Assembly: GCA_963665145.1 (NCBI GenBank)
Contig: OY762064.1
Coordinates: 1,588,239 to 1,652,238 of the forward strand
DNA from: Gammaproteobacteria bacterium
GTDB taxonomy: Bacteria; Pseudomonadota; Gammaproteobacteria; Steroidobacterales; Foliamicaceae
Length of the DNA stretch: 64,000 bases
Direction: 5' to 3'
In this document: positions 6,879-54,098 of the stretch, one piece after another
Layout: each line of letters begins with the position of its first letter
Position numbering within the stretch: position 1 is the first letter of the stretch
Notes under the pieces: model-generated
What the model was told of the DNA's origin: nothing
Databases searched by the model: none
The model's input: the letters and a program-made list of their open reading frames with translations, nothing else
Position numbers and translations under genes: made by a program

Positions 6879-6881
6879 GCG

Positions 6882-26531: not shown

Positions 26532-26721
26532 CCGATGGTGCAGTGAGCGAGACCCCACGGGCCTGCGCTCTTCGGAAGATTTCCGTTATATGTCAGCAGG
26601 ATAGACCGAGTTCGGCCTATCGCCGCGATCCGCCGCGCGGGGCGCGTTGCCTGTTCAAAGCCGCCGTTTTGTTCCCTTGAGACGAACGGCGCCCGAGGAA
26701 ACAGACAACGGAGACACGCTC

Positions 26722-30608: not shown

Positions 30609-30695
30609 TTAGCCTCAATAGCATAGACGCTGAAATCCCTGAGCTTACCCTCCTGCCGGCATCGGCGTGTTTCTGGGGCACGCCTCCAGGTCCAA

Positions 30696-30725
30696 TTGAC
30701 CATAGCACGCCATTCGGGCTACAGT
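30696..30725 (+). promoter_or_regulatory. possible sigma70-type promoter for sspBCD (TTGACC-18 nt-TACAGT)
   Basis: These hexamers were read directly in the 152-bp divergent sspA/sspB intergenic region. The spacer is one nt longer than optimal. Confidence 0.25.
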
Positions 30726-30760
30726 CGAGCTGGAGGCATCATCCAGTAGCCGAGGCACCA

Positions 30761-35951: not shown

Positions 35952-35993
35952 CCGCAGCCGAGTCGAAGAATGATTGCAACGAGGGCATAAGAA

Positions 35994-37792: not shown

Positions 37793-37881
37793 ATACGTAT
37801 GCCGCCAAGCGGACGGGCGAGAATGCATACGAACGACTTGAATAGGAAAGGTCAGGTTCTTGCGCCCGCCATGAATGAACC

Positions 37882-39540
37882 ATGACCAGATCGACCGACA
37901 CGCCGGACGCCGCACCGGGCATCGCCCTTCAAACCTTGCTGCGCAACGCCAAGGCAAAGGCATTGCGGGAGGTAATCGGTCCGTCGATCGTGGATACGCT
38001 CCTGGGGCTCGACCCGGAACTGGATTCCGGCACCCGGCTCGGAGAGCTTGCTGCCAGCCTCCTCGAACCCTCCGAAGCATTGCGCGACCCGGAGATGCGC
38101 GACCGCATCATCCGCATGTTGCCATTACCGAAGGCGCGCGAACTGGGCGGGCACTTCGGCGTTATGGACGGTCGTACGCTCTACGATGATCTCAGCGTCG
38201 CCGCCGCAGAACCCGCGGGGCTGGCTGTAATGTACTCTTTCTTCGGAGTGGTGCGAGACGTTCGCGCGCCGGCGCACACGTCCCCGAATGCCATGACGGC
38301 GGCTGCCGGTTACGCGCTGTTCGATCACCAGCGTGCCGCTGCCGAGCGTGTCATGCACGCGCTGACCGACACGACGCGCAAGGTCATTCTTCATATGCCC
38401 ACCGGTGCAGGCAAGACCCGCACGGCAATGCACATCGTGGCCGAACATCTGCGCCGGAGCGAACCGACCGTCGTCTGCTGGCTGGCCCAGAATGCGGAAC
38501 TTCTCGACCAGGCCGCCGACGAGTTTGAGAACGCATGGCGTTTCCTCGGAAACCGGGAAACCGGACTCATCCGCTTCTGGGGACACAGGAGACCGGATGT
38601 TCTCGACATGCAGGACGGTGTGATCATTTCCGGCCTCGCCAAGATGTCCGCGCTCGACAACCGCGACCCCGCAACCCTGCTGCGTTTGGCGGACCGCGTC
38701 TCGTTGACGATAATCGACGAGGCCCATCAGGCCATTGCGCCGACCTACGCGGCGATCCTCACCGCCCTCTACAGCAAACGTCCGCGCAACGCTTTGCTGG
38801 GGCTGACGGCGACGCCCGGAAGAAGCTGGTCGGATATCGGCGAGGACCGCAAGCTCTCGGACTATTTCAACGGCCGTAAGGTCACGCTCGAAGTCGAGGG
38901 GTACGACGACCCGGTGACCTTCCTGATCGACCAGAATTATCTTGCACGGCCGATCTTCCGCACCCTCAATTCCGATGCGGGTCTCAAGCTGAGCGAGAAC
39001 GATGTAAATGCGCTCTCGACCGCAATCGACGTGCCGGAGCAGATTCTGGAACGTCTGGGTACCGACACGCAGCGCAACCTGAAAATTCTGTCCGCCGTCG
39101 AAGACCTGATGACGCGGCACCGTCGAGTCATCGCATTCGCGCCCTCTGTAGAAAATGCGCGCATGCTTACGGCAATCTTGTCCATACGCGGACACGAAGC
39201 ATTCGTCGTGACGGGTCAAAGCAATGCGGCAGAACGCGATAGAATAATTAAGCGTTTCAAAAGTAAAGATAATCGCGCAATGGTGGTTGTAAACTACGGT
39301 GTTTTGACCACCGGATTCGACGCGCCCGCGACGAGCGCCGCCGTAATCGCGCGACCGACACGATCACTTGTTCTTTACAGCCAGATGGTCGGCAGGGCGA
39401 CACGCGGAACACGTGCCGGTGGAAATGACGAGGCCGAGATTGTAACAGTTGTCGATCCGCACTTGCCCGGCTTTGGCAACGTTGCCGACGCATTCAAGAA
39501 CTGGGAGGACGTTTGGGATGAGCCTGACAGATGCTGCTGA
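37882..39540 (+). CDS. superfamily-2 DEAH-box helicase
   Basis: 552 aa. Motif I is HMPTGAGKTRTA, II is IIDEAHQA, III is LTATPGR and VI is QMVGRATRG. It has a roughly 170-aa N-terminal extension of unknown type. Confidence 0.85.
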   Translation: MTRSTDTPDAAPGIALQTLLRNAKAKALREVIGPSIVDTLLGLDPELDSGTRLGELAASLLEPSEALRDPEMRDRIIRMLPLPKARELGGHFGVMDGRTLYDDLSVAAAEPAGLAVMYSFFGVVRDVRAPAHTSPNAMTAAAGYALFDHQRAAAERVMHALTDTTRKVILHMPTGAGKTRTAMHIVAEHLRRSEPTVVCWLAQNAELLDQAADEFENAWRFLGNRETGLIRFWGHRRPDVLDMQDGVIISGLAKMSALDNRDPATLLRLADRVSLTIIDEAHQAIAPTYAAILTALYSKRPRNALLGLTATPGRSWSDIGEDRKLSDYFNGRKVTLEVEGYDDPVTFLIDQNYLARPIFRTLNSDAGLKLSENDVNALSTAIDVPEQILERLGTDTQRNLKILSAVEDLMTRHRRVIAFAPSVENARMLTAILSIRGHEAFVVTGQSNAAERDRIIKRFKSKDNRAMVVVNYGVLTTGFDAPATSAAVIARPTRSLVLYSQMVGRATRGTRAGGNDEAEIVTVVDPHLPGFGNVADAFKNWEDVWDEPDRCC

Positions 39541-41353
39541 GTCGCAAAGGCTCGACGGAGAAATCATTCCGCCCGAACTGGCCGTGAAGGCCATGCGCGA
39601 CAGCGGCTACAAAAACACCGCACACGCTCTCGCCGAACTGATCGACAATTCCGTCCAGGCGAACGCAAGCCATGTCGAGGTGATCTGCCTTGAAGAGTAT
39701 CGGAAGGTCAACGAACGCGCCAGCCGCAGGATTCAGGCAATCGGCACCCTCGACAATGGCGACGGTATGACGCCTGAGACGCTGCGTCTCGCCCTTCAGT
39801 TCGGGAACGGCACGCATCTGACGGACCGGAAGGGTATCGGCCGTTTCGGCATGGGGCTACCAAACTCGTCGATATCGCAGTGCCGCCGGGTCGAAGTCTG
39901 GACATGGCAAAACGGCCCCGACAACGCCATGTACTCCTATCTCGATGTAGATGAAATTGAAGGTCGGCGGCTGTATGCGGTTCCGACTCCCGCGCACAAA
40001 CCGATGCCCGATGAATGGCGCGCTTGTTCCGACAACGTCGACACGACCGGCACGCTCGTTCTCTGGACAAACTTCGACGATCATCGCCTGAGCTGGCGCG
40101 GCGCGCCGGCGACGCTGCGCCATACGGAATCGCTTGTCGGGCGCATGTACAGGAAGTTCATCGACAACGGTCGCCTGTCCATCCGACTCTTGGCATTGCT
40201 CGAAGACAAGGATGAACCGACCTTCGACGAATCGGTGCGCGTCAACGACCCGCTCTACCTGATGCGGAATTCATTGACCCCGGTCCCGTTCGACATCGAT
40301 CCGATGTTTCAGCCCTGGGGCGACGCGGACGAGGTGTTCTCTATCGATTACGACGGTGCAAAGCACGATGTCGTGGTCCGCATGAGCTGGGCGCGGGAAG
40401 AGACCGTGCCGGATGACAGAAGCGACCGCGGCTCAAAACCTTACGGAAAGCACGCTGCCAAGAATATCGGCCTTTCCATCGTCCGAGAGGGCCGCGAGCT
40501 AGACCTCGATCCTGCCTGGACCAACAGCTACGATCCGACCGAACGATGGTGGGGCGTCGAGGTCGAGTTTCCCTCGACGCTCGACGAGGTGTTCGGCGTT
40601 ACGAACACCAAACAAAGCGCCACGGTCTTCTCGCATATGGCCCAGTTCGATTGGAAGGCCGAGGCCAATTCCGGCGAATCGCGGTCGGAGTTTCAGGAGC
40701 GCATACAGGGCGAGGGCGATCCGCGTGCGATTCTGCTGCCCATCGTCGATCACATACGCGACCAGATTCAGGAGGTGCGCAGGCGCCTCAAGAAACAGAA
40801 TGTCGGACGCCGGACGAAAGAAGACCGGCATGACAAGCCTGACGTTTCCGACCTAGCCACGACAAAATTTCGCGAACGCGCTGACCAGGGACACGAGACG
40901 GAGTCGGACCACGAAGAGTTCACGGAAGAGGACCGCGACAATCTCGAGAAGGATCTCACCGAGGACAAACAATACCGGCAGGATGTCGCCCATGAAATCG
41001 CCCAAGCGACATTCACGCGCAAGCGTAAGGTCCTGTTTCTTGAAAAGGCGATGGAAGGCTACGCCTTCTTCAATGTTGAGCACAAACAGGGTGGAGTGAC
41101 CCAGGTTGTTTTCAACAGCGATCACCCCTTTTACGACCAGCTCATAGAATCGCTTCGGCCCCAGATCGGCGAAGAAACCGACGCCGAGTTGATGGAGCGG
41201 ATACACACGGCGGCCGACACGCTAGAATTGTTGTTTGCTGCCTGGGCGCGCTACGAGATGGAGGAATTGCGCCACAAGAACCGGCTGTTCGAGATGCGGC
41301 AGGAATGGGGAAAGATGGCGCGCTTCTTCCTCACGGAAGAGGACGACGAATGA
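39518..41353 (+). CDS. GHKL-superfamily ATPase (HATPase_c_3/MORC-like)
   Basis: ATG 39518 after GGGAGGA, overlapping the helicase 3' end by 23 nt. Bergerat-fold boxes are ELIDNSVQA (N), LDNGDGM (G1) and GRFGMGL (G2). The C-terminal region is acidic and helical. Confidence 0.8.
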   Translation: MSLTDAAESQRLDGEIIPPELAVKAMRDSGYKNTAHALAELIDNSVQANASHVEVICLEEYRKVNERASRRIQAIGTLDNGDGMTPETLRLALQFGNGTHLTDRKGIGRFGMGLPNSSISQCRRVEVWTWQNGPDNAMYSYLDVDEIEGRRLYAVPTPAHKPMPDEWRACSDNVDTTGTLVLWTNFDDHRLSWRGAPATLRHTESLVGRMYRKFIDNGRLSIRLLALLEDKDEPTFDESVRVNDPLYLMRNSLTPVPFDIDPMFQPWGDADEVFSIDYDGAKHDVVVRMSWAREETVPDDRSDRGSKPYGKHAAKNIGLSIVREGRELDLDPAWTNSYDPTERWWGVEVEFPSTLDEVFGVTNTKQSATVFSHMAQFDWKAEANSGESRSEFQERIQGEGDPRAILLPIVDHIRDQIQEVRRRLKKQNVGRRTKEDRHDKPDVSDLATTKFRERADQGHETESDHEEFTEEDRDNLEKDLTEDKQYRQDVAHEIAQATFTRKRKVLFLEKAMEGYAFFNVEHKQGGVTQVVFNSDHPFYDQLIESLRPQIGEETDAELMERIHTAADTLELLFAAWARYEMEELRHKNRLFEMRQEWGKMARFFLTEEDDE

Positions 41354-41354
41354 T

Positions 41355-42302
41355 ATGGCAGTTGTCCCTCCCGGCGACGGTATTCTCGAACTGCTCAGGG
41401 CCGCAAACGACCGGGTGATCATAGCAGCGCCGTACATCAAATCCCCGACGCTGCGCCGGTTGCTAAACGTCATTCCCGAGGCGGTGTCGGAGTGCATCTG
41501 CGTCACGCGCTGGCTTCCCGAAGATATCGCCTCCGGCGTCTGTGATCTCGAAATCCTCGACGATCTCACCCACGCGCGGGGCGGACGGCTTCTAGTGCAT
41601 CCACATCTGCATGCAAAATACTACTCTAACGGACACCAGACGCTTGTCGGCTCGGCCAACCTGACGGCGCGCGGCCTTGGTTGGCACAAACTATCCAATG
41701 TCGAAATATTGGTCGCACTTCCGGCCGATTTTGGAGGGCTCGTTGAATGGGAACAATCGCTGCTGGGTTCGGGTGTAGAGGGCACAGTTCAGTTGCGTGA
41801 CCAGATTCGCCGGCAATCGAAACTGCTGAAACAGGCCGGGGCTCTTCGCGGCGTTCCGGAAGTTGAAGAGAAAACCTTCGATCAAGAAGATCCCTCACTG
41901 TGGATACCACAGTGTCCGGCCCCGGAACGTCTCTGGGAAGTCTATCGCGGGCATGGCGCCGATACGATGGTGAGCAGTGCGTTCGAAGCGGCACAGGAAG
42001 ACCTTGCGGTATTGTCTTCTCCGCCGGGACTTACGCGTGATTTGTTCACGGCCTATGTAGCCGGAATATTGAAACAGATGCCATTGCTCACCGAGATAGA
42101 CAAACTGGCAGCAGTCGGTTTGACGGACGCGAAAGCACACGAGTTTTTGGCCGATCGACTAGGAAGTACGGATCACGAAATCGAATATGGCCAGGTCTGG
42201 CGCGTCGTCAAACAGTGGCTTGTTCACTTCTTCCCCGAAACCTATCGGCTCGAAACTGGCCAGGAAGTTCTAGTCAAAGGTCGTGAACTGCCGCGCCACT
42301 GA
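41355..42302 (+). CDS. PLD-superfamily (single HKD, Nuc/NgoFVII-like) putative nuclease
   Basis: ATG 41355, one nt after the GHKL stop. The HKD-type motif is HPHLHAKYYSNGHQTLVGSANLTARG. About 315 aa with a C-terminal region of unknown fold. Confidence 0.75.
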   Translation: MAVVPPGDGILELLRAANDRVIIAAPYIKSPTLRRLLNVIPEAVSECICVTRWLPEDIASGVCDLEILDDLTHARGGRLLVHPHLHAKYYSNGHQTLVGSANLTARGLGWHKLSNVEILVALPADFGGLVEWEQSLLGSGVEGTVQLRDQIRRQSKLLKQAGALRGVPEVEEKTFDQEDPSLWIPQCPAPERLWEVYRGHGADTMVSSAFEAAQEDLAVLSSPPGLTRDLFTAYVAGILKQMPLLTEIDKLAAVGLTDAKAHEFLADRLGSTDHEIEYGQVWRVVKQWLVHFFPETYRLETGQEVLVKGRELPRH

Positions 42303-42324
42303 CAGGAGCGTTTCTTTTCCTGTC
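42301..42324 (+). terminator. weak hairpin after the PLD gene (GACAGGA-10 nt-TCCTGTC)
   Basis: A 7-bp stem read directly from the sequence. The U-tract is weak and interrupted. Confidence 0.3.
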
Positions 42325-42821
42325 CATGAAAACATGATTTTGGTGCTTTGGACGAGTCTGGTCATGCTGTCGTGAACTGAATCCCGCTTGCCGCGGGTGT
42401 CGGCGACTTAGCATCGATCGGTCGTGCATGCGACTACTTACGGCCCCCATTTTCATGGCCGCACAATTCGGAAATCAGGCTCCACGTTGCATCAAGCTCT
42501 GTCTAACTTTGCGCTATTCACGATTGAATCCAACCACGGGTTTGAAGAAATCTGGCCGGGGTTGCGGCAGCACAACATTGAAAAGCCGCAGCGTAGTTAC
42601 GTTGAGCTCACGCAACATGTGAAGGCAACGCGTAAAGACTGAATCAGGAAAGAAGAGGAAACGCTTGACGTGACTAGGCAGCATGCGCCGCGATCGTTCC
42701 GGCCAGTTTGTCTGTCCTTGTGCTTGGCTCAGCGACAAAGGCAGCCCGGGATTTAAGTTACGCGAGGGTGCCTAAGTAAGCAAACTGACTGCTTCACCAG
42801 CCTCAATAGGATTCAAAATCG

Positions 42822-43904
42822 ATGAACAACCCCTATAGTCCCGAACAGAAAAAGTGGCTTAATGATCTTCAGGAACATTACCGATCCGTGACCAACGGCA
42901 TCTGCATGGCAACTATCCGGCTTGGTGGCGAAAGTTCCACGGAGCCATGCGAAGGTCCAATTGGACGCCGTCACGCAATCGCGAAGAGGCACCTGAAACT
43001 GATTGCGGAATGCAATGCCCAAATTCGAGCCATTAGGGAGACTGGGACATTTGCGAAATGGCCGGAGCGGGAAGATGATCTTCGACTTGTGCCTATCAGT
43101 CGGTTCAGCGCGGGCCGGTGGTCCTGCCAGAGGCACGACGAGAGGTTCGGGGGCATCGACGCACAAGAGATTGATCTCTCGGAACCCGAGAATTTGTTTA
43201 AGGCGGTCTACCGTGTAGTCCTACGCCAAAACCATCTAATGCTGGCCCGCTGGAATGCGTTTTTCGGCATGACCCAAACCGCGGAAGGATGGAATCTTTT
43301 CAAGGAAACAGCATTCGAGAGGACGTTAAGCGACGAAGAAGCGACCAAGGCGGAAGCCGCATGGAGGGATGAAACACACGCGGTCATGAGGAAGATGCGC
43401 GATCTTGAACGGCGATTGAGGCTACAAGATTGGAACTCCCTTGAATTCCGCGCGCTCCTGGTGGCATCCAATCCCAAAGCGGCGGGATGGGGTTGTCTCA
43501 TGATGAAGTTTGACTTGAGCGGTTTGCGCGCCGATGATCCACGAAGACATTGGGACCACCATATCGAATTAGGCTACATTATTGTGATTCCTCAACAAGA
43601 GGGACATGCCATCATCACCGCCTGTGAGCCAGAAACTCAATTTCGCGTACCAGAGATCGTAAAAATTCACAGATTTATGCCGGTGCGCACGAACCCCAAC
43701 GAACCGCACACGGCTGAAGCACTTTTGAAGCGCGGGCTTTCGCAAAGGATCTGGGAACTCAACGAAATTGGCATGTGCGAATCACTCTATCAATCCTGGT
43801 CGGATGCAGAACGAAACGAAGTTAAGGCCTGGATGAAGAAAAGGGGATCGCGCCAACCCACGCTGTTGAAACAGGCTTTGAATTCTCTTCCTAGTTTTCT
43901 CTGA
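42822..43904 (+). CDS. orphan hypothetical protein (360 aa), visibly lower GC
   Basis: A clean ORF preceded by a roughly 520-bp AT-richer spacer. His/Cys-containing N-terminal blocks (GRRHAIAKRHLKLI, WSCQRHDERFGGID). I could not assign a family. Confidence 0.5.
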   Translation: MNNPYSPEQKKWLNDLQEHYRSVTNGICMATIRLGGESSTEPCEGPIGRRHAIAKRHLKLIAECNAQIRAIRETGTFAKWPEREDDLRLVPISRFSAGRWSCQRHDERFGGIDAQEIDLSEPENLFKAVYRVVLRQNHLMLARWNAFFGMTQTAEGWNLFKETAFERTLSDEEATKAEAAWRDETHAVMRKMRDLERRLRLQDWNSLEFRALLVASNPKAAGWGCLMMKFDLSGLRADDPRRHWDHHIELGYIIVIPQQEGHAIITACEPETQFRVPEIVKIHRFMPVRTNPNEPHTAEALLKRGLSQRIWELNEIGMCESLYQSWSDAERNEVKAWMKKRGSRQPTLLKQALNSLPSFL

Positions 43905-44030
43905 CCTAATCGCGCGAGAAATTTTGTTCGCCAACTTCGCGCAGAACCCCATGCACCGCCCAAGGACGCGCTGGAAATCCTCCGCTACTTGGGGCAGCCA
44001 TTACATGACTGTGCACTTGTCCATCACAGC

Positions 44031-45623
44031 CTACGGTGCAACCTTCTCGAAGAGATTCGCCTGTTCCTCATCGCGCGGCAAATCCACCTCGGGCATCAGC
44101 TTCGCGACCGCTTCGGCCGGTACATTCCCGAGCTCCTTCGGCTCCAGCTTGTGTAATCCACCGCCGTAAACACGTCCCTCCCCAAGCATCGCCTTAGGAC
44201 AAATCTGATTCAGAATCTTCCACATTTGCCGTCTCAGTTCCGGCCGAGCTACCAGAGCCTGATGTAGCGGCCTCGATGGGTATAGCATCAAGTACACGTT
44301 CGCCGCTGTTGCCCGTGAATTATTCAATATGAAGCGGAAAGATCGCCCATTCTTCTTGTCGCTTCGGCCGAGATAGGTGCAGACGAAAGGTGCCGGGGGC
44401 CGGTTTTCCTGCATGTACCAGCGCTTTCGATGGCGACAGATGTAGCGATCTGCAATTCCCTCTTGCTTACCCTCCTCTAAATACGCCCACAAATTCGGAA
44501 AGCGATTCTTGATTTCCTCTTCGGCCCACGGTGGATCTAGCAGAAACAATCGGCGCTCCAGCACCGGATTACCGCTCCGATCACCCTTGACTTCATCCTC
44601 TGTCAAATAGCGTGGACTCGGCAGGATCGGTTTGAAGGCTTCCATCGGAAGTCCGCGGCGAGCAATCTCCTGCGACGACAGGATGAAGTAACGGTTATTG
44701 CCAGTAGCCAAACCCCGCTTGATCTTGAAGAAGTCGCCGAGTACTGGCCCATTGTTTTTCTCGTGCCTTTCCTTCGCCGGATAGCGTGTCCATTTTGGAT
44801 CGTGGCGCAATGTCTGCGCTGGTATTAGCCGCTCCAGCTTCGGTCGTTCCAACGTGCCACCATAGCTGAATCGCACTTGGTGATCTTCTTTCGGAGCCTG
44901 GTTGCGGAACCAGACTACTGCGGACGACACAAGTGCGTCACCGAACTGCACATCGTTGGGGTCGAAGCGATGAATGTGGAGAAGCGTCACCCTGTTCAGC
45001 AGGTAGTGCTTCACGGCGACACCGTAATTCACGTCCATGAACTCGCTCGGGATCAACCACCCCGCCAATCCGCCTTCCGCCATCCACGGGTGGCTCAAAC
45101 CCAAAAAATAGCAGTAGAGCCCTGCAAGCCCGTTGATCTCCACGCCGCAGGAATTCAGCGTCTCTTGCCTCAACCGTTTCTTCTCGACATTGACAATATG
45201 GTGATGCCGAACATAGGGCGGATTACAGATGACAAGGTTGAACCTGTCCCCAGCCTTCGGCACCTCAGACCGGGTAAAGTCCATTAGGCGGAGATCAAGC
45301 CCGGTGTTCCCCCATAGTCTTGCCGCTGGCCGACCGTAATGCGGGTCGATTTCGTAGCCCACGGCAGAGCGAATACAAGTCTGTGGAAACACGCTCAGCA
45401 ATGCGGAATAGAACGAGCCCGTTCCAAAGGCCGGGTCCATAAACCTTATGTCCTCGTTCGCTCCGAGTTGCCTCTGCGCATATCGCTGTATATCCGCAGC
45501 CAGCCCGGACGGTGTCGCAAATTGACCCATACGGTTGCGCATCTGTACGTCTCGACCTGTGTCCAGATCACGTTGCAATGCGATCCGCCGAGCTTCCAAG
45601 TCTGTAACTGTTGCCCTATTCAC
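44031..45623 (-). CDS. N6-adenine DNA methyltransferase (gamma class, Eco57I/TaqI-like catalytic domain + target-recognition domain)
   Basis: 530 aa. Motif I is FMDPAFGTGSF and motif IV is VICNPPYVRHH. Confidence 0.85.
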   Translation of the reverse strand: MNRATVTDLEARRIALQRDLDTGRDVQMRNRMGQFATPSGLAADIQRYAQRQLGANEDIRFMDPAFGTGSFYSALLSVFPQTCIRSAVGYEIDPHYGRPAARLWGNTGLDLRLMDFTRSEVPKAGDRFNLVICNPPYVRHHHIVNVEKKRLRQETLNSCGVEINGLAGLYCYFLGLSHPWMAEGGLAGWLIPSEFMDVNYGVAVKHYLLNRVTLLHIHRFDPNDVQFGDALVSSAVVWFRNQAPKEDHQVRFSYGGTLERPKLERLIPAQTLRHDPKWTRYPAKERHEKNNGPVLGDFFKIKRGLATGNNRYFILSSQEIARRGLPMEAFKPILPSPRYLTEDEVKGDRSGNPVLERRLFLLDPPWAEEEIKNRFPNLWAYLEEGKQEGIADRYICRHRKRWYMQENRPPAPFVCTYLGRSDKKNGRSFRFILNNSRATAANVYLMLYPSRPLHQALVARPELRRQMWKILNQICPKAMLGEGRVYGGGLHKLEPKELGNVPAEAVAKLMPEVDLPRDEEQANLFEKVAP

Positions 45624-46586
45624 CTACAATCCAAACTCCGCGAAATCGTGGATGCGGTGCTCCCAAACCCAGTCGATACCTTCCGCCGCCTCGTAACCGA
45701 GATAGCCGCTGTCGAAATACCCGCACAGGAATAATACGAAGCGCACATTGTTACCGTAGGTTCGGCGCAACTGGCTCATTTTCGCCGCTTCTTCCTTGCG
45801 TCTCTTGTTGACGTTTGTGAAGTCTCCTGCCGATTTTGCCTCGATAAGCAACGGCAGCTCACCAACCTTGGCGGTCTTGGCCATAACGACCGCGTCCACA
45901 GGGATATTGATGTTCTTGTCCGTTCCTTCCTGGGCGACGGGTACGTTGAGACGAAACGAGTATGTCCCAGGCTTCATCTCATCAAACTTCGTGCCTTCGC
46001 CGGAAGGAAGGTTCGTATACCCCAATGTCGCCAGCCATTCGCCAATGGCTTCGAGCTGACGCTTCTCCTGAGCATTGCGGATGATGGGATTCGCAACGGC
46101 TCCGCACAAACGATCAGCCACGATCGTCGCAGCTCTATACAGCTCCTTTTCGGACGGTTCGTTGCGGCGCTCCAACCACACGAAGACATCGGGATCGGCC
46201 ATCGTCTCGATTATCTTCCCCATCTTTTCTAAGTCTATGTCCAGTTTGTTCCTCGGCATCCGTGGCGGCATCCTGTCGTACTTCTCCATCGACTTGACCA
46301 AGTTCCCCGAGACCCCGGCAAGACCAATCAGCCGGTCTACGGCCAACGGCGGACAAGTGGACATCCGCAAGGTAGGCAACACCGAGGGTTTCGTCTTTAG
46401 CAGTTCTGGCCCTACGTTGGTCAGGTTCTTGGTCGCCTTCAGCGTCGCCTCGACATCCTCTGTGGTCTTTACTCGCGTCGCCCGGTATGCCTCCGGTGCA
46501 AATCGCATGAACCAGTCGTTGTACATATCCACCGACAGCGCAATGTCTTCCTTCCACCGATCCGGTTTATCCCTGTTGGCAGCCAT
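45624..46586 (-). CDS. type II restriction endonuclease, XamI-like
   Basis: About 320 aa, abutting the methyltransferase gene with no gap. The N-terminal block KPDRWKEDIALSVDMYNDWFMRFAPEAY resembles what I recall of the XamI (RE_XamI) family; this assignment is from memory only. Start is ATG 46586 or GTG 46589. Confidence 0.6.
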   Translation of the reverse strand: MAANRDKPDRWKEDIALSVDMYNDWFMRFAPEAYRATRVKTTEDVEATLKATKNLTNVGPELLKTKPSVLPTLRMSTCPPLAVDRLIGLAGVSGNLVKSMEKYDRMPPRMPRNKLDIDLEKMGKIIETMADPDVFVWLERRNEPSEKELYRAATIVADRLCGAVANPIIRNAQEKRQLEAIGEWLATLGYTNLPSGEGTKFDEMKPGTYSFRLNVPVAQEGTDKNINIPVDAVVMAKTAKVGELPLLIEAKSAGDFTNVNKRRKEEAAKMSQLRRTYGNNVRFVLFLCGYFDSGYLGYEAAEGIDWVWEHRIHDFAEFGL

Positions 46587-46774
46587 CACTTGCGCTTCTT
46601 TGTCTGCACGTCCCGACTAGCCTGCCGGCAAAGATCCCAAACTTCCACGAATAGGCCGTTCAGCCGCACGTTCCGCATTGCTGCTTCTTTATTGAAATCA
46701 ACGGCCGTCTGCCTAGTTAGCCGGATTCCAATTACCTGTGTCGATTGGCCCTTTTTCCATCCGACTGCTCACTA
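46586..46774 (-). CDS. possible small ribbon-helix-helix controller-like ORF upstream of the restriction gene; no canonical start for the full domain
   Basis: The minus-frame translation ..QVIGIRLTRQTAVDFNKEAAMRNVRLNGLFVEVWDLCRQ.. has an RHH beta-strand and helix pattern, and its stop overlaps the REase ATG by 1 nt. The only ATG (46678) would give 30 aa. Confidence 0.25.
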
Positions 46775-47061
46775 TCGTTCTTGGTGTAGGCATTGTTTGT
46801 CGACAAGTCGAAAGATGTCAAGCGTTTTCGGTGGACTCGTTCGAACACATTGCCAATCCACACAACCTACTGCCACCGGTGATTATTTTCTTACGCTAAT
46901 CCGATCATCCGCAAGGCCGTCACGTCCCCTGCCGTAAATGCCGCCTTTTCGTCCCCTGCACAGCCCGAAGAGAGCGAGTCCGGCCGGTAGCGGGGCGGCG
47001 GGCGGCGCTCCGGGGGGCGCTGCCGCCGTTCCCTTTCCCCTGACACAAGGAGCACGGCACG

Positions 47062-47388
47062 ATGCAGGCGACACTCGCACCGCGCGGCGACGCGCGCACT
47101 TTTCTCACCCATTTCGTCGGCAGCGGTCTTGTTGACGACCGCTATGTCATCCAGCGGTACCGGTCCCAGGCGGACGGCGACATTGTTCCTGTCGACGCCA
47201 ATGGCGCCAGACCGAAGGGCCGGCACCGACCCCGCCCAACCATCGCCTCGCTGAAGGCGGTCGAAAAGCTGCGCCCGGCCCGCGACGAGATCATCATCGC
47301 GACGGGGATCAAGCTGCGCAATTGTGGAGTACAGATCTGGGGCTGGAGAAGTCTGGGTCTTTTCGTCGAGCGCCGCCAGAAGGGCTGA
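47062..47388 (+). CDS. conserved hypothetical protein (108 aa), module gene 1 copy 2
   Basis: Paralogue of 21686..22012 with the same length. Confidence 0.55.
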   Translation: MQATLAPRGDARTFLTHFVGSGLVDDRYVIQRYRSQADGDIVPVDANGARPKGRHRPRPTIASLKAVEKLRPARDEIIIATGIKLRNCGVQIWGWRSLGLFVERRQKG

Positions 47389-47473
47389 CCGGCACGCACC
47401 TGGGACGTGCCGCCGGCCCGCTGCCGGGGGGGCGTCCTGCCGTCCCGACTTCCACAGCTTCCGGAGACGCCAT

Positions 47474-48490
47474 ATGCCCTACAAGGATCCTGAGCGCCGG
47501 GCGCGCGACCGCGAGCGGATCGCACAGCGCACTGCCGAGCGTCTCGCCGCCGGCCTTTGTCCCAAGTGTGGTCAACGCCCACCCCAACCCGGGCGGCGTA
47601 ACTGCGCGCCCTGTGCCGAGAGGGCCCGTGCCGCCGGCCGTGCACGGGATGCACGATTGCGCGCCGCCGGCCAACCGCGGCGGAACAGGGAGCGGGCTCG
47701 CGCGTACGAGCGGGGGCGGGTCCGCCGGCAGGCCGCCGACCGTATCGCCCGGGGCGTCTGCACCAAGTGCGGGACAGAGCGTGCCGAGTCCGGCCTCCGC
47801 CTTTGCGCGCCCTGTGCTGAGAAACGCCGCGCATGGGACCGGGCCCGATACCGGGCGGGCAAAGCCGCCGGCGCGCTTTATGGCGGAGCCAATGTCGATG
47901 CAAAGCGCCGCATCGCCCGCATCGCCAGCGCGAAACGCCGCAACGCGCGCGTCGAAGCCGGCCTGTGCCGACGCTGCGGCCGCCAGCCTCCCGTCGAAGG
48001 CGGCGCCACCTGCGCGCCGTGCCGGGAGACCCGGCAGGCGGCGGAGCGCGCACTGTACGCATCCCGGAAGGCCGCCGGCCTTTGCACCCGCTGCGGGGGA
48101 CCGACAACCGACAGCGTTCCCCAGTGCGCGCCCTGCATCGTGCTCGAAGCCGAGCGCCGCCGGCCCGAGCACAAGAACGCCCGGAGCCGGCAACGGTACT
48201 GGGAACGGAGGGCGGCCAGCCGCTGCACGGACTGCAATGCGCCGAGCTTTGGAGCCTCGCGATGCCCCACGTGCGCCGAACGCTCGTACGAGCGCTCCGA
48301 CTTCTTCCGCGGCATCCCCGTGTGGGATCCCAGTTATACGGTGATCGAACTTGCCACGGGGGAGACTCACGGCCCGTTCGATTCCGAAGCCGAAGCCGTC
48401 GCCGAGCTGGCCTTCGCCGGCCTTTCGTTCGACGAGGTCGAGATCGTCAACGACGCGCCGGTCACGGCGCGGCTGACCGGCTGGGCCTGA
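47474..48490 (+). CDS. five-fold tandem zinc-ribbon repeat protein, copy 2
   Basis: ATG 47474 (MPYKDPERRARDRERIAQR..). The five CxxC..CxxC units are CPKCG/CAPC, CTKCG/CAPC, CRRCG/CAPC, CTRCG/CAPC and CTDCN/CPTC. Confidence 0.6.
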   Translation: MPYKDPERRARDRERIAQRTAERLAAGLCPKCGQRPPQPGRRNCAPCAERARAAGRARDARLRAAGQPRRNRERARAYERGRVRRQAADRIARGVCTKCGTERAESGLRLCAPCAEKRRAWDRARYRAGKAAGALYGGANVDAKRRIARIASAKRRNARVEAGLCRRCGRQPPVEGGATCAPCRETRQAAERALYASRKAAGLCTRCGGPTTDSVPQCAPCIVLEAERRRPEHKNARSRQRYWERRAASRCTDCNAPSFGASRCPTCAERSYERSDFFRGIPVWDPSYTVIELATGETHGPFDSEAEAVAELAFAGLSFDEVEIVNDAPVTARLTGWA

Positions 48491-48536
48491 GCGGTCCTCA
48501 TTCGTCGGGCGGGGGGTCCTGAGTTCGAGGATAGCG

Positions 48537-48575
48537 CGTGCCGGGCGAACGCCCGGGAGAGGAGAGGGAGAAGGG
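48537..48575 (+). promoter_or_regulatory. conserved leader element B (hairpin + polypurine tract)
   Basis: Near-identical to 23641-23679. It ends 37 nt before ATG 48613. Confidence 0.35.
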
Positions 48576-48612
48576 CTCCCCGTCCCGGGCGGACCCACGA
48601 AGGAGGTATCCC

Positions 48613-48789
48613 ATGTTCACACCCGACACCGACTACGACCCCATCCCCGCAGCCACCGGCCAATTGCTGAACGACCTCGGCATTGACGTAAACGCCGTGC
48701 GAGAGACTCTCGCCGACGACCGGGCCCGGCGCTGTCCCGAACACGAGGTCCGGGAAATCGAGAGTTGGAGGGAAGCAAGAGAAGGATGA
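48613..48789 (+). CDS. conserved small protein (58 aa), copy 2
   Basis: GAAGGAGG lies before the ATG. Paralogue of 23719..23895. Confidence 0.5.
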   Translation: MFTPDTDYDPIPAATGQLLNDLGIDVNAVRETLADDRARRCPEHEVREIESWREAREG

Positions 48790-48870
48790 GCGGACGAGGG
48801 TCCGGAGAGAGACTCCGGTTCCCGGCCGTTCGCCCACCCATCGTCATTACGTAGCAGAAGGAGAATCAAC

Positions 48871-49329
48871 ATGAGTTTTGGATTGAATCGCGCGGAAGTC
48901 ATCGGCCGCCTTGGCGCTGACGTCACGGTCAACCACCTGGTATCGGGGGGCCGTGTGGCCAACCTCAGCATCGCCACCGACGAGTCGTACATCGACAAAG
49001 GCGGCGAGCGCGTCGACAAGACCGAGTGGCACCGCATCGTTACCTTCCAGCCCGGGCTGGTGGACATGCTGGTCAAGAACGCGAGGAAGGGCCGGCTAGT
49101 CTACGTCGCGGGCAAGCTGCAGACGCGGCGCTGGCGCAAGGACGGCGAGGACGCCGACCGATTCTCGACCGAGATCCTCCTGGCGCCCGGTTCGCGGGTC
49201 CAGTTCCTGGACCGACCGAACGGCAATAGTGCGGCGACCGAAGCCGGCGAGCCGGCCAACGGTTCCGCCATGCCGGCGGACGCCACGGCGCAGGCGGACG
49301 GCAGGCAGGGCGATCAGATCCCCTTCTGA
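48871..49329 (+). CDS. ssb: single-stranded DNA-binding protein, copy 2
   Basis: 152 aa. The OB-fold region is nearly identical by eye to copy 1, and the C-terminal tip is ..GDQIPF. Confidence 0.85.
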   Translation: MSFGLNRAEVIGRLGADVTVNHLVSGGRVANLSIATDESYIDKGGERVDKTEWHRIVTFQPGLVDMLVKNARKGRLVYVAGKLQTRRWRKDGEDADRFSTEILLAPGSRVQFLDRPNGNSAATEAGEPANGSAMPADATAQADGRQGDQIPF

Positions 49330-49352
49330 TCTCGCTTCCGCTTACGCCCGAA

Positions 49353-49385
49353 GGGGGCCGGTGCTTCGTCGCCGGTCCCCTTTTT
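49353..49385 (+). terminator. Rho-independent terminator after ssb copy 2
   Basis: GGGGGCCGGTG-cttcgt-CGCCGGTCCCC is an 11-bp stem with two G-U pairs, followed by TTTTT. Confidence 0.7.
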
Positions 49386-49464
49386 CATGCAGGCGGCTTC
49401 GAGCCCGCACCGCACCGTTCGGGATTCGCAACCGTCTATGCGGGGGAGGAGGAGAGTAGCTCGG

Positions 49465-49495
49465 CCACGGCGAACCGCGCGGAGAGGAGAGGGAG
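49465..49495 (+). promoter_or_regulatory. conserved leader element C (partial hairpin + AGAGGAGAGGGAG)
   Basis: A third copy of the polypurine leader. It ends 37 nt before ATG 49533. Confidence 0.3.
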
Positions 49496-49532
49496 TACCG
49501 CCGCGCCCGCATCGGACCACCGGGAGAAACCC

Positions 49533-49760
49533 ATGAGCGACGTCACCTTCAAGCGGGCCGGCCCGCACGAATCCCGCATCTACACAGACGGCGACTGCAT
49601 CGGCGACATCTATCGCATGGACGACATCCTCCGCCCGGGTGTGCATGTCTACGTCATTCACTTGTTCGAGGACTGGCGGGGACCGAAGCGCGTCCACGAC
49701 CGGCGGCGCATCCGCGAGGTGGCCCAGCACCTGCTCGATACGCACCCGTTCTACGGGTAA
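49533..49760 (+). CDS. small hypothetical protein (75 aa) present only in module copy 2
   Basis: It is preceded by the same leader element as the 58-aa genes. No family was recognised. Confidence 0.4.
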   Translation: MSDVTFKRAGPHESRIYTDGDCIGDIYRMDDILRPGVHVYVIHLFEDWRGPKRVHDRRRIREVAQHLLDTHPFYG

Positions 49761-50048
49761 CCGGAGTGGAATAAAGCGTTGCGTTCCAGATCGGCAGCGC
49801 CAGCCTGCTGCGCACTGGGTTTGCGGGAAGAGAACGGGGTCGTGAAACCAAAAAGCTCCTCCCGACATAGGCCCATTGTCACACACGTGCTCACTGCGCC
49901 AACCCCTTCGGGGTCCTCCACTGTGTTCCGGCCGCTTCGCGGTGACTCCGCTGCGCGCGCGTGAGACAACAAACCTATGTCGGGAAACGCTCTTCCGGCA
50001 ATGCGGGCCATCGGGCCCAACTCTCAACTTCGTTAAGGAGACACTCTA

Positions 50049-50966
50049 ATGTTCAATTACGACACCCATCAAGCCATCTCCCCCACCGCCGTCATCTGCG
50101 AGAACGCCGCGCTCTACGGCGCAAAGCCCGAACGAGGCGAGCACGACCCCAGGGCCATCTGGGACCGCGACGGCGCCATAGACGCTGCGACGCAGGCGTT
50201 CGCGATCCTGGCCGAGGGCATCGCCCCCGACGGGGTGCAGCTGGCCGACGAACGAGAGAGCCTGCTCTGGGGCATCGTCAACGCCTTCGACGCCCAGGTG
50301 AGAAGGCTCGACCGCAGCGTCGATAAGCTCATCCCCCAACTGCGCGACCTCGAACGCGCCCAGGACGGCACCGAGATCAACGCCCGAGAGTTGGAACTGC
50401 GCACCGAGCGCGCGCAACACCTCGGGGACCGGCGCGACGCCTTCGAGGCAATGCGCGACGCGCTGGCCGAGCAGTACCGCGACAACACGGGCAGCACCTG
50501 GCGCCCGCGGCGCGGCAGCCACGTCAGCCACACCGGCAAGCTGACCTCCGCGGCGATCGACGCCCGCGACTTCCGCCGCGCGAAGAAGGACCGCGAGATG
50601 AACGCGCACCTGCCCGACGGCACGCTGGTCGCCATCACCGGCGGCAAGACCGTCACGGACTGCGACGCCGTCAACCGCAGCCTCGACCGCGTCCGCGCCA
50701 AGTACCGTGACATGGTGCTGGTGCACGGCGGCGGACCCGGCGTGGAGAAGATCGCCGCGCAGTGGGCCGAACGCAACGAAGTGCACCAGGTCGTGTGCAA
50801 GCCGGACTGGAACCGTCACGGACGGGCCGCACCGTTCCGCCGCAACGACGAGCTGCTCAATCTCCTGCCCAAGGGCGTCATCGCCTTCCCCGGCTCAGGC
50901 ATCACCGACAACCTCATCGACAAGGCCACCTCACTCGGCATCCCCGTCCAGAAGATCGCGGCGTAG
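50049..50966 (+). CDS. N-terminal helical domain + DUF2493 (SLOG-like) fusion, copy 2
   Basis: 305 aa. Paralogue of 24792..25718 with a near-identical C-terminal domain. Confidence 0.7.
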   Translation: MFNYDTHQAISPTAVICENAALYGAKPERGEHDPRAIWDRDGAIDAATQAFAILAEGIAPDGVQLADERESLLWGIVNAFDAQVRRLDRSVDKLIPQLRDLERAQDGTEINARELELRTERAQHLGDRRDAFEAMRDALAEQYRDNTGSTWRPRRGSHVSHTGKLTSAAIDARDFRRAKKDREMNAHLPDGTLVAITGGKTVTDCDAVNRSLDRVRAKYRDMVLVHGGGPGVEKIAAQWAERNEVHQVVCKPDWNRHGRAAPFRRNDELLNLLPKGVIAFPGSGITDNLIDKATSLGIPVQKIAA

Positions 50967-51679
50967 TCCGCGACCCGCCAACGGGCCGCGCCGACCCGCT
51001 TGGCGCGGCCCGTTCCTCGATCCCGTCACAATCCAGCAGGGCGGCGCCACGCCTCACGGGTCCATGCACTTCGCACATCACCTGTGACGGCTTCGCCGTT
51101 CACCTCCATCCGCAGTGCCATCCGCACTGGTGCCGCAAATGGTGTCGATCGTCCCGCGGACGCTGCCGCCGCCGCGTCCGCCCGTGGGCTTCGCACGACG
51201 GCCGGCACCTCCGTCGGCATTGCCTACTTCGGCCCGTGCAACCGCAATCGCGTCCTCGCGGCTGACGCCGCGGTAACGTGTGTGTCATAGACCTCTGCGC
51301 GTGCGGTAACAGGTGAACGCCGATATCTTCCCCAGCAACACCACCGCTGTCCACGTTCCCTGCTGCGCTGAGGGAACATGTGCAACGCGTCCACTGGGTG
51401 TGCGGAACATGTGAGACGAATCTTCTGCGCTGAGGGAACAATCCGGGTCCGCGCCCGCAACCGGTGCGCCCTGTGTGATGCACAGCACCGCGCCCTTCCG
51501 TTGCGCGCCCCGTTCTGTTACCTTGGCCCGCGAACGGCAACGCGGAACGTGCTCGATGATCGCGGTCCGGTCGTCTCGCTCAATCGCCGCGGCGGCTCCA
51601 AATCCTTGATTTGCCGGCGTTTCAGGCGGTGGTGGTGTGCAGGGCTCCTTTGCCCAATTTCGACTCCATTCGGAGTTTT

Positions 51680-51697
51680 ACCGTCACACCCCACGCA
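51680..51697 (+). repeat. 18-bp exact direct repeat ACCGTCACACCCCACGCA (right copy)
   Basis: Identical to 26514-26531. Confidence 0.9.
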
Positions 51698-51788
51698 GTT
51701 CCTCTGCGGTGTGTGCCAAGCGCGCGCCTGTCCCGCAGTCCTGTGCGATCTCAGCGATATGGAACGCCTCGGCGTTGATGGGCCGAGT

Positions 51789-51905
51789 GTATGCTCTGAG
51801 CATACGCGGGGATTTCCTCTGTGTTCCAAGGACTTGCGGAATGACGTATGCTGACAGCATACGTTTCCTTTAAGGGCCGATCCTATGTGTATGCTCATGG
51901 CATAC
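51789..51905. promoter_or_regulatory. three palindromic GTATGC-N5-GCATAC sites (operator array or oriT-like) upstream of the MobC-like gene
   Basis: The sites are 51789-51805 GTATGCTCTGAGCATAC, 51844-51864 ACGTATGCTGACAGCATACGT (a perfect 21-bp palindrome) and 51889-51905 GTATGCTCATGGCATAC. Confidence 0.55.
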
Positions 51906-52000
51906 CCATAAATGGGTCCTGCAAAGACAGTTCAAGCCGTCAGCTGCGATGATCGCGGCCGCGTTCAGCCCTGCGAGTGCACCACTTTGGAGGCAAGTCC

Positions 52001-52390
52001 ATGAACGAAAACGAGTCCGAAAATGCAAAGTCCGACCAGATTCCAGCCGGAAAACAGCCCCAACCGCGAGTGCCCCGCTCCATCCGGTTCTCCGATTCCG
52101 AGTGGGCTTGTATCGAAAAGGAAGCCAAGGCCCGCGGAATGACCGCTGCGGAGTTTGTGCGCCACGCCGCGGTCAGCCTCACCGCTGGCACGCTCAGTCA
52201 GAATCCTCCACAGCTCCCGCCGGAAATCGTCGCCCAGGTCGAGCGTATCTATCGCGGCGTCTATCTGATCTCCACGCTCAAACGCGACGAAATGATCCGC
52301 GCGGGACGGCAGGACGAATGCGACCAGATCACAAAGAACGCCCGGGATTCGCAGGATTCAATCCGGAATGCGGCTTCGGCGCAAAGTTGA
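52001..52390 (+). CDS. ribbon-helix-helix protein, MobC-like (relaxosome accessory / regulator)
   Basis: GGAGG lies before ATG 52001. RSIRFSDSEWACIEKEAKARGMTAAEFVRHAAV fits the MobC/RHH_1 pattern. Confidence 0.55.
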   Translation: MNENESENAKSDQIPAGKQPQPRVPRSIRFSDSEWACIEKEAKARGMTAAEFVRHAAVSLTAGTLSQNPPQLPPEIVAQVERIYRGVYLISTLKRDEMIRAGRQDECDQITKNARDSQDSIRNAASAQS

Positions 52391-52439: not shown

Positions 52440-52655
52440 TCAGCTATCAGCCCGCTCATAAGGTCCCAGCAAGCGTTCGCCCTCAAAGTGAATGACATGA
52501 GTGGGCGCATCCGCGCACCAAATTTCCTTCTCCCGGGAGATGTCCACGAGATATCGATCCATCACTCCGCAATCTTGAAGGGCTGTGACGTAGACCAGAC
52601 CTGGTGGCGCCTCAGAGAACAAGTTGGCCAGCTCGTTGTGGCGTTTTGCGTCCAC
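52440..52655 (-). CDS. hypothetical small protein (71 aa)
   Basis: An ORF with no recognisable family in a moderate-GC region. Confidence 0.25.
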   Translation of the reverse strand: MDAKRHNELANLFSEAPPGLVYVTALQDCGVMDRYLVDISREKEIWCADAPTHVIHFEGERLLGPYERADS

Positions 52656-52906: not shown

Positions 52907-54098
52907 CTAGCAGCCTGTTGAAAAAGTCGGATTGACGGATAATACGGTAACGGACGGTTGAGGGTTGTTGAGATGCGTGGTGCGGTTGATTCTCAGGTGG
53001 CGATGTTCAGCTATGTGGACTTGGAGTCGCGGATTTCGGCCCGGCATCCGATTCGTTTGATTCGTCGGATTGTGGATGAGGCTTTGAGGGAGATGGAGCC
53101 GGCTTTTGCGCGGATGTATGCGGATCGAGGCCGGCCTTCGATTCCGCCGGAGCATTTGCTTCGCGCGCTGCTGTTGCAGGTTTTGTATACGGTTCGCTCC
53201 GAGCGTTTGCTGATGGAGCGGATTGATCATGATTTGCTGTTCCGCTGGTTTGTGGGCTTGGGGATGGACGATCCGGTATGGGACCACTCGACCTTTTCGA
53301 AGAACCGGGACCGGATGCTGGGTTTTGGATTGGACGGTCTTTTGTTTGAGGCGGTGAAGAGGCAAGGGCATGCCAAGCGGCTGCTGTCGCGGGATCATTT
53401 CAGCGTGGATGGGACGCTGATCGAAGCGTGCGCGTCGATGAAGTCGTTTCGGCCGAAGGACGAAGCGGACGGGGATGGCGGGGACTTTCATGGGCACAAG
53501 CGGCGTAACGCCACGCATGCTTCGGTCACGGACCCGGAGGCGCGGCTGTATCGCAAGGGCCAAGGCAAGGAGGCCAAGCTAAGTTTCATGGGTCATGTGC
53601 TCACGGAGAACCGCAGTGGTTTGATTGTGGGCGCGGCGGTGACGAAGGCGGGGGGGCGCGAGGAATGGAAGGCGGCGCTGGCGTTGTTGTCCAAGCAGCC
53701 TCGACGTTCGCATCGCACGGTGGGGGCGGACAAGGGCTACGATGTGGATGCATTTGTCACACCCTGCCGCGAGCTGGGGGTCACGCCGCATGTGGCAGCG
53801 CGGCGCTCGGGGGGCGGATTGACGGCCGAACGACGCGTCACGCCGGTTACCGGGTGAGCCAGCGCAAGCGCAAGCAGGTGGAGGAGCCGTTCGGCTGGAT
53901 GAAGACCTACGGCTTGCTCGGCAAGCTGCGCCACCGCGGGCTGGCGGAACTCGGCGATATGTTCATCGAGCGCCCGACGGGTGGATGGAAAAGCGGTGGA
54001 CACACCCAATGGCGAAATCTCTCGACGGCACGGCTGTCGCTCCGTTCCCAACAGCATCACAACTCGACCAAAATCAGCGTTTTTCAACAGGCTGCTAG
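52907..54098 (+). mobile_element. IS5-family insertion sequence with 19-bp perfect terminal inverted repeats
   Basis: IRL is 52907-52925 CTAGCAGCCTGTTGAAAAA and IRR is 54080-54098 TTTTTCAACAGGCTGCTAG. It encloses a DUF772 + DDE transposase reading frame. Confidence 0.8.
52973..54060 (+). pseudogene. IS5-family transposase, frameshifted at a G6 run (53809-53814) and degenerate at the 3' end
   Basis: Frame A reads MRGAVDSQVAMFSYVDLESRI...HVAARRSGG. It continues in another frame as ..IDGRTTRHAGYRVSQRKRKQVEEPFGWMKT. The expected C-terminal block is not recovered in one frame. Confidence 0.7.

Follow-up and report, generated by a model that had tools for sequence, protein, structure and literature searches.

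A predicted F-type transfer origin with probable sites for a NikA-like ribbon-helix-helix protein on an apparently relaxase-less genomic island in Foliamicaceae

The DNA analysed here is a 64,000-nt stretch of a Gammaproteobacteria bacterium of the family Foliamicaceae (GCA_963665145.1, contig OY762064.1, positions 1,588,239 to 1,652,238), referred to below as the window. It contains three GTATGC-N5-GCATAC palindromes upstream of a gene for a small ribbon-helix-helix (RHH) protein. The palindromes are quite probably dimer sites of this NikA-like protein within an F-type (MOBF) origin of transfer (oriT). Judging from the sequence, they probably serve the relaxosome as accessory sites and, in addition, the RHH gene as an autoregulatory operator. 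An oriT or relaxosome accessory region had been one of the readings offered by the initial annotation of the array, and it is now supported by an F-type nic core with an inverted repeat and by the conservation of the sites. The best-supported mechanism is conventional, namely a MOBF-type oriT with RHH accessory and operator sites on a genomic island that apparently lacks a relaxase.

The coordinates at which the initial annotation had placed the three palindromes proved exact (Table 1), and a zero-mismatch search returned no other perfect copy in the window. None was obtained in 100 dinucleotide-preserving shuffles either, and a chance origin was rejected for this reason. When up to two mismatches were allowed, one additional match appeared in the window, unrelated to the array. 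The centres of sites 1 and 2 are 57 bp apart and those of sites 2 and 3 are 43 bp apart, which corresponds to about 5.4 and 4.1 helical turns, so that sites 2 and 3 lie on the same face of the helix. Site 3 ends 95 nt before the ATG of the RHH gene at 52001.

A nic consensus near the palindromes had been proposed as a check of the transfer reading, and the outcome was positive: some 100 bp before site 1, at 51685-51708, there is an F-type 13-mer with an inverted repeat. In the alignment of the upstream regions, the block CACACCCCACGCA at 51685-51697 is nearly invariant. Read on the minus strand (51697-51685), this 13-mer, TGCGTGGGGTGTG, is identical to the nic region in the F plasmid record (NC_002483.1). 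The F nic region has been reported as 5'-CTTGTTTTTGCGTGGGGTGT^GGTGCTTT-3', i.e. 5'-...TTTGCGTGGGGTGT^GGTGC (PMC2504302). The 13-mer occurs twice in the window, where 0.11 copies are expected, and in 29 of 43 loci a 12-mer of it occupies the corresponding place. The inverted repeat abuts the core on its 5' side on the transferred strand (T strand). All 27 family copies examined contain it, its register is that of GCAAAAA/TTTTTGC in F, and its arms come in four variants (GCAG/CTGC, GCACC/GGTGC, GCAT(C)/(G)ATGC and GCGCT/AGCGC), all of them complementary. MOBF origins are typically built in this way, with a co-varying hairpin beside an invariant single-stranded core. Two candidate T-strand oligonucleotides that span the predicted nic are 5'-CTGCGTGGGGTGTGACGG-3' and 5'-CACCGCAGAGGAACTGCGTGGGGTGTGACGGTAA-3'.

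The layout of the region matches that of F. In F, the TraM sites are located between nic and traM, and F and the window are alike in that nic is separated from the gene of a small two-domain DNA-binding protein by three sites for this protein. The nic 13-mer is identical, the inverted repeat abuts it in the same register, and nic lies on the minus strand in both. The last T before nic and the ATG of the accessory gene are separated by 322 nt for F traM and by 315 nt for the RHH gene, both genes lie on the plus strand, and their products have 127 and 129 amino acids (aa), respectively. The leading genes are on the plus strand as well, with ssb and psiB in F and genes for a Cys-rich protein, an SSB and a YspA/SLOG-domain protein in the window. 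Because of this matching layout, the three palindromes hold the place of the TraM sites, which in F are named sbmC, sbmB and sbmA and lie in the same oriT fragment as nic (PMC2504302). However, the sequences of the window sites are unrelated to the sbm sites and, unlike in F (MOBF12), no traJ, traY or tra operon follows the RHH gene. The relaxase found in relatives has the size and architecture of TrwC (~1000 aa), compared with 1756 aa for F TraI. Furthermore, the family resides in chromosomal islands of uncultured marine bacteria, whereas F is an enterobacterial plasmid.

The gene downstream of the palindromes had been described as a MobC-like RHH gene. This description is correct in type, although the family that was matched is NikA-like (PF21983). 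The product scored 29.1 bits over residues 26-58 (gathering threshold 27, E=1.1e-6), and the start at 52001 is backed by the alignment of homologues and by a GGAGG at 51989-51993. A search of PDB sequences with the family profile gave NikA of plasmid R64 as the sole match (2ba3, E=0.004). In total, 257 homologues were detected, nearly all of them without names, and many bear a precomputed NikA-like annotation. The AlphaFold2 (AF2) model of the protein has a predicted local distance difference test (pLDDT) score of 76 overall and of 83-90 in the RHH helices, and its C-terminal helical hairpin is confident (Table 1). A search of 72,556 plasmids with the DNA of the region and with the RHH protein yielded no matches. 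Two variations in the gene itself were observed: locus L030 carries two tandem RHH genes (5432-6378), and on metagenome contig L075 a more distant homologue (39% identity, 1576-2355) is directed towards the nic core rather than away from it.

Two known accessory proteins provide a frame for this protein. NikA of R64 (PF21983, 2BA3), a small RHH protein encoded beside its oriT, is the sole significant match of the RHH domain among families and PDB sequences. It binds a repeat close to nic, and in R64 nikA is followed directly by the relaxase gene nikB at a MOBP nic. The window differs from this MOBP system in its F-type nic and in the MobF partner relaxase of its relatives, in the additional C-terminal helical hairpin and disordered N-terminus of the AF2 model, and in having three sites instead of one. 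TrwA of R388 (MOBF11) is likewise an RHH accessory protein of a MobF/TrwC system, and the relaxase of one relative (L018) is colinear with R388 TrwC. TrwA is an RHH tetramer with an N-terminal RHH and a C-terminal oligomerisation region that binds oriT and represses trwABC, and the model of the window protein appears to follow the same plan, with an N-terminal RHH and a C-terminal helical region. However, trwA, trwB and trwC are co-directional in R388, whereas the relaxase and coupling protein genes of L018 converge on the RHH gene, and the R388 nic core differs from that of the window. In its position and plan the RHH protein resembles TraM or TrwA, and by sequence it groups with NikA-like proteins.

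Conservation of the sites in related elements, on which the initial interpretation depended, was observed. A scan of species-representative genomes (metagenome-assembled genomes, MAGs) identified 42 loci that encode an RHH relative, often two or three per genome. The MAG labels of these loci, which are referred to by L numbers, comprise Candidatus Foliamicus, Pseudomonadales, Alphaproteobacteria, Rhodobacteraceae, Acidobacteria, Poribacteria, Binatia and Rhodothermales; binning errors may lie behind labels on short contigs, and those of long chromosome-level records are more reliable. Of the 42 loci, 25 have perfect GTATGC-N5-GCATAC sites, always upstream of the RHH gene and on the same strand. 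Their offsets from the RHH ATG are fixed at -212 for site 1, -155/-156 for site 2 and -112/-113 for site 3, with the nic block at about -316, and this geometry holds even where the RHH proteins are only 50-65% identical. Since the distances between nic, sites and ATG stay within a few bp across distant relatives, the region can be regarded as one nucleoprotein unit. Site 2 is the most conserved of the three, and site 1 is more variable. In L004, L006, L008, L010 and L026 site 1 is exchanged for a different palindrome, which in L008 is the perfect palindrome GTGTTACGACGTAACAC with both halves altered, and in L003 and L018/L019 it was lost by a 57-bp deletion, which is exactly one site-1-to-site-2 interval. 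The arms are conserved, and the 5-nt centre varies freely. The palindromes are missing at a truncated oriT core at 26.5 kb of the window, which has no RHH gene, i.e. they travel with this gene.

In addition, the half-sites co-vary with the protein. A GTATGC-type site with at most one mismatch was found in 32 of the 33 loci whose RHH beta-strand reads RS(I/V)RF or HS(I/V)RF, and in none of the eight loci with RAIRF, RTIRF or RTVRF. Substitute sites were found at matching positions, namely GTATAC-N7-ATATAC or GTATGC-N7-ACATAC (L023, L028) and GAATGTC-N4-GACATTC (L033, L036). Alternating positions of an RHH beta-strand, including residue 27 of the window protein, are expected to face the major groove. 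Such a co-variation is what direct recognition predicts and is suggestive of it.

The initial annotation had also noted that the window contains no relaxase gene, and a tblastn search for a TraI/TrwC-type gene agrees with this. Among the relatives, a 1008-aa MobF/TrwC relaxase gene follows the RHH gene in convergent orientation in L018/L019 (Pfam TrwC 1.2e-85; NCBIfam MobF 290 bits, cutoff 100; 35% identity to R388 TrwC over 944 aa), together with a gene for a TrwB/TraD-type coupling protein. L024, which has a full leading module and the exact nic core, contains a gene for a TrwC-helicase at a distance of up to 6 kb, L031 likewise has a TrwC-type gene within 6 kb, and L020 contains fragments only. 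Because the MobF relaxase and coupling protein genes adjoin the RHH gene in some relatives, the RHH/oriT family is physically tied to MOBF transfer genes. Their presence in these relatives and not in the window also fits mobilisation of the island in trans, which is probable. Alternatively, a relaxase gene may lie past the end of the window, since the right boundary of the island was not found within it.

In the proposed mechanism, a MobF/TrwC relaxase would recognise, on the minus strand, the single-stranded core 5'-GCGTGGGGTGT^G together with the inverted repeat and nick between 51686 and 51685. The minus strand would then move 5' to 3', and the YspA, SSB and Cys-rich genes would enter the recipient first as the leading region. 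The RHH protein, probably oligomerised via its C-terminal helical hairpin, would fill sites 1-3 between nic and its own gene. There it would shape the relaxosome and repress its own promoter, as TraM does at sbmA-C of F, TrwA in R388 and NikA in R64. Since the window encodes neither a relaxase nor a coupling protein, its copy would need a helper element and would thus behave as an oriT-only island.

Several observations weigh against this interpretation. Searches with F TraI and TraD (tblastn) gave no match in the 64 kb of the window, and relaxase, coupling protein and type IV secretion system genes are missing from the window and from within 10 kb in the nearest relatives; for this reason, the window copy could be an inactive relic. 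The nic core of the relaxase-linked locus L018 (5742-5753) is slightly different, with GCGCCGGGTGT^GAG on the T strand. The margin over the PF21983 threshold is only 2 bits. A comparison of the family profile (70 sequences) with F TraM by hhalign reached a probability of 0.2%, and no Pfam TraM match was found, so that membership in the TraM family was rejected and the protein is TraM-like by position only. The match of the family to R388 TrwA is weak as well and extends only over the strand and the first helix of the RHH (31% over 32 aa, probability 3%). When the AF2 model was compared with the PDB by Foldseek, no match was significant and neither TraM nor TrwA was matched; the top match was NikA (probability 0.84, E=0.35). 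The RHH beta-strand is not formed in the AF2 monomer, which is expected for an RHH monomer, yet lends no support. The co-variation is based on two or three clades and few independent events. No consensus promoter was found in the region by a sigma-70 scan, and an overlap of sites and promoter is hypothetical. The TATGCT half-site does fit the TAnnnT pattern of a -10 element and a TTCCAA lies 17 nt upstream of site 2, but a role of the half-sites as -10 elements is only a suggestion. Finally, it is from such comparisons that we infer binding by the RHH protein, autoregulation, nicking and mobilisation in trans.

Three other explanations of the palindromes were considered, all of them less likely. 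The most serious, although itself unlikely, is that the sites are only a transcriptional operator of an RHH autorepressor or of a cargo repressor, e.g. an orphan antitoxin-like protein, and that their nearness to nic is incidental. RHH autoregulation via palindromic operators is common, and weak, sub-threshold matches of the protein to RelB antitoxin and DUF6290 point in the same direction. Moreover, most loci have variable defence cargo and not transfer genes after the RHH gene, including SNF2, SIR2, DEAD/MZB helicases, a DISARM-like set, OLD nuclease, a restriction-enzyme fragment or a transposase, and the window has no relaxase. Against this stand the distances that separate nic from the sites and from the ATG, which are fixed to a few bp in distant relatives, as well as the best family and PDB matches, which are relaxosome proteins, and the relaxase and coupling protein genes that adjoin in some members. 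A conserved toxin partner is also missing downstream, where the genes vary by locus, and a type II toxin-antitoxin antitoxin was rejected on these grounds and because of the sub-threshold RelB and DUF6290 scores. In part, this explanation overlaps with that of an F-type oriT with RHH sites, since relaxosome RHH proteins autoregulate too.

Much less probable is a role of the palindromes as arm-type or accessory sites of the P4-type integrases of the island, which carry an Arm-DNA-binding domain; the palindromes would then belong to an attachment site by the oriT core. The homology between the two oriT copies of the window does break right after the inverted repeat, a complementary break exists in L042, and integrase genes follow the truncated core in the window as well as in L112 and L108, which indicates recombination beside the region. 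However, the palindromes accompany the RHH gene in loci without an integrase within 6-10 kb and are missing exactly where integrase genes adjoin. Arm-type sites are normally non-palindromic direct or inverted copies, and the half-site co-varies with the RHH beta-strand. Equally improbable is that the palindromes, instead of being duplex protein-binding sites, act as hairpins of RNA or of the transferred single strand (priming signal, single-strand promoter or terminator): each site could form a stem of 6-10 bp, a terminator scan flagged a weak stem at 51794-51811, and conjugative leading regions use single-strand structures, but the stems are short, the sites are on the last-transferred side of nic, no T run follows sites 2 and 3, and a conserved arm sequence with a free 5-nt centre is the signature of a sequence-specific dimer site.

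Table 1. Features of the window around the predicted oriT, its second copy and the surrounding island. Positions are those of the window unless residues are given; a dot stands for a feature without strand.
Feature	Position	Strand	Details
Palindrome site 1	51789-51805		GTATGC-TCTGA-GCATAC = GTATGCTCTGAGCATAC; perfect
Palindrome site 2	51846-51862		GTATGC-TGACA-GCATAC = GTATGCTGACAGCATAC; core of perfect 21-bp palindrome ACGTATGCTGACAGCATACGT at 51844-51864
Palindrome site 3	51889-51905		GTATGC-TCATG-GCATAC = GTATGCTCATGGCATAC; perfect
Putative nic core	51685-51697	-	5'-TGCGTGGGGTGT^G-3'; predicted cleavage between 51686 and 51685
Inverted repeat	51694-51708	.	CGCAG-TTCCT-CTGCG; abuts nic core on its 5' side (T strand)
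Conserved GC box	51716-51730	.	CCAAGCGCGCGCCTG; nearly invariant in alignments A2 and A5
Conserved block	51763-51787	.	AACGCCTCGGCGTTGATGGGCCGAG; directly upstream of site 1; many near-invariant columns in A2
Hairpin with T run	51662-51679	+	GACTCC-ATTC-GGAGT; just before nic
NikA-like RHH gene	52001-52390	+	129 aa; Pfam PF21983
RHH protein, N-terminal parts	residues 1-62		1-22 disordered; RHH helices 32-44, 49-62 (AF2 model); beta-strand PRSIRFS 25-31, not formed in AF2 monomer
RHH protein, C-terminal helical hairpin	residues 74-128		helices 74-100, 104-128; confident in AF2 model
Leading-region module, copy 2	46976-50966	+	Pfam: SSB, YAcAr; homology to copy 1 begins at 46976
Cys-rich zinc-ribbon-repeat protein	47324-48490	+	first large gene of module
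Small open reading frame (ORF)	48538-48789	+	leading module copy 2
SSB	48871-49329	+	Pfam
Small ORF	49533-49760	+	leading module copy 2
YspA/SLOG-domain protein	50049-50966	+	Pfam YAcAr
Truncated oriT core, copy 1	26519-26531; 26529-26541	-	13-mer; inverted repeat GCACC-GAT-GGTGC
Paralogous leading module, copy 1	21600-25718		Cys-rich 22097-23107, small ORF, SSB ~23976-24437, YspA ~24790-25718
P4-type integrase pair before copy 1	18875-20206, 20210-21415		Arm-DNA-bind_3 + Phage_integrase
P4-type tyrosine integrase pair, overlapping	26722-27861, 27858-29297		Arm-DNA-bind_3 + Phage_integrase; after copy 1 core
Defence island between oriT cores	29421-46589		dense
SspA	29421-30608	-	
SspB, SspC, SspD	30761-35951		
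DndB-like protein, PbeA-like helicase, MzaB-like HATPase, PLD protein	36521-42302		
Eco57I-like methylase	44031-45623	-	
XamI endonuclease	45624-46589	-	
BsuBI/PstI-type endonuclease remnant	52440-52655	-	after RHH gene; common to closest relative L046
IS5-family element	52907-54098		19-bp inverted repeats 52907-52925 / 54080-54098

Further conserved elements lie close to the nic core. The hairpin just before nic is probably the terminator of the leading-gene operon, and other loci have a hairpin of different sequence at the same position. The GC box, where breakpoints between island units recur, is the left edge of the part that is absent from oriT copy 1, and the homology of L042 begins there. 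The block AACGCCTCGGCGTTGATGGGCCGAG directly upstream of site 1 could be a -35-like TTGATG or the site of another factor. A metagenome scan with the 14-mer TGCGTGGGGTGTGA returned mostly chance matches; 5 of 120 loci showed module, integrase or RHH homology, and one of these (L079) was chance-like.

The leading module lies upstream of nic in the window, i.e. on the 3' side of the minus-strand nic, and is syntenic in most related loci. Its genes are all on the plus strand and hence templated by the putative T strand, the minus strand, as are ssb and psiB of F. The Cys-rich protein is always encoded by the first large gene of the module and has 336-388 aa in the two window copies, with repeated CxxC...CxxC zinc-ribbon-like units; no Pfam or NCBIfam match was found for it. 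In L018, the SSB/YspA module is absent from the 6 kb upstream. The spacer that separates nic from the YspA gene (50967-51660) varies between about 230 and 800 bp across loci and starts with a conserved GC-rich terminator-like hairpin at 50983-51011. It contains several repeats, namely CTGCGCTGAGGGAACA at 51360 and 51422 as well as the variants GGAACATGTG / GGTAACGTGTG, and these repeats also occur in L016 and L007. Gene callers set an ORF in this spacer in L043 and L047. When folded as T-strand DNA, the spacer was unremarkable (z = -1.4). In the closest relative, L046, the YspA gene is separated from the oriT/RHH region by an inserted IS66 transposase gene and DruA-like gene (6720-9501).

The window contains a second, truncated oriT core, copy 1, with its own paralogous leading module, whose proteins are 53-78% identical to those of copy 2. 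The homology of copy 1 to copy 2 ends right after the inverted repeat, and copy 1 has no GC box, no palindromes and no RHH gene. Each integrase pair forms the left end of a unit that closes with a nic core. The junction of nic and inverted repeat with an integrase gene was found again on metagenome contig L112, as an orthologue, while L108 has an independent junction of YspA, nic with inverted repeat and integrase, in which the integrase is unrelated, and L042 shows the complementary breakpoint at the GC box. As these junctions recur, the position just past the inverted repeat is a recurrent joint between island units. The joint could arise by integrase targeting or by relaxase-mediated nic-to-nic events. 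A short-word BLAST search for direct att repeats at the ends of the integrase-bearing units gave nothing convincing. No tRNA genes are present in the window, and a tRNA gene as integration target was therefore ruled out.

The two nic sites (51686, complete, and 26520, bare) are directly repeated around a 25-kb unit with two integrases, SspABCD, the DndB/helicase/PLD cluster, a restriction-modification pair and a leading module. A tentative and rather doubtful extension of the oriT interpretation is that defence islands without a relaxase are arrayed in tandem in the window and that each of them ends in an F-type nic with inverted repeat, so that the oriT cores would serve as joints for island assembly or exchange. 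A helper MobF relaxase could start at the complete oriT and stop at the bare core, exporting the defence island as an integrating circle. Alternatively, the integrases may target the spot just past the oriT inverted repeat of resident elements. If such an array exists, its reach would, by the MAG labels, extend across several bacterial classes and possibly phyla.

Genomic islands that carry only an oriT (iOriTs), ride on helper elements and have defence genes near the oriT have been described in a survey of six nosocomial species (bioRxiv 10.64898/2026.01.13.699239). The window island resembles them in combining integrases with an oriT, in the defence systems around the oriT and in the lack of relaxase and mating-pair genes in the window. 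Unlike the surveyed iOriTs, this family was found in MAGs that are assigned to Candidatus Foliamicus, Pseudomonadales, Alphaproteobacteria and other groups, and it keeps a full leading module and its own RHH protein. In the literature searched, the RHH/oriT family, its host range, the combination of an F-identical nic core with a NikA-like protein and the association with defence islands are not described.

With this analysis, what was an anonymous intergenic repeat becomes a candidate transfer origin that can be tested, since a nick position, the transferred strand and the leading region are predicted and three sites are defined for a candidate accessory protein. The F-type nic core appears to be used far beyond enterobacterial plasmids, paired with a NikA-like rather than a TraM-like accessory protein. 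With hundreds of RHH homologues, in MAGs labelled as different classes and phyla and set in dense defence islands, the RHH/oriT family could explain the spread of defence systems among uncultured marine symbionts.

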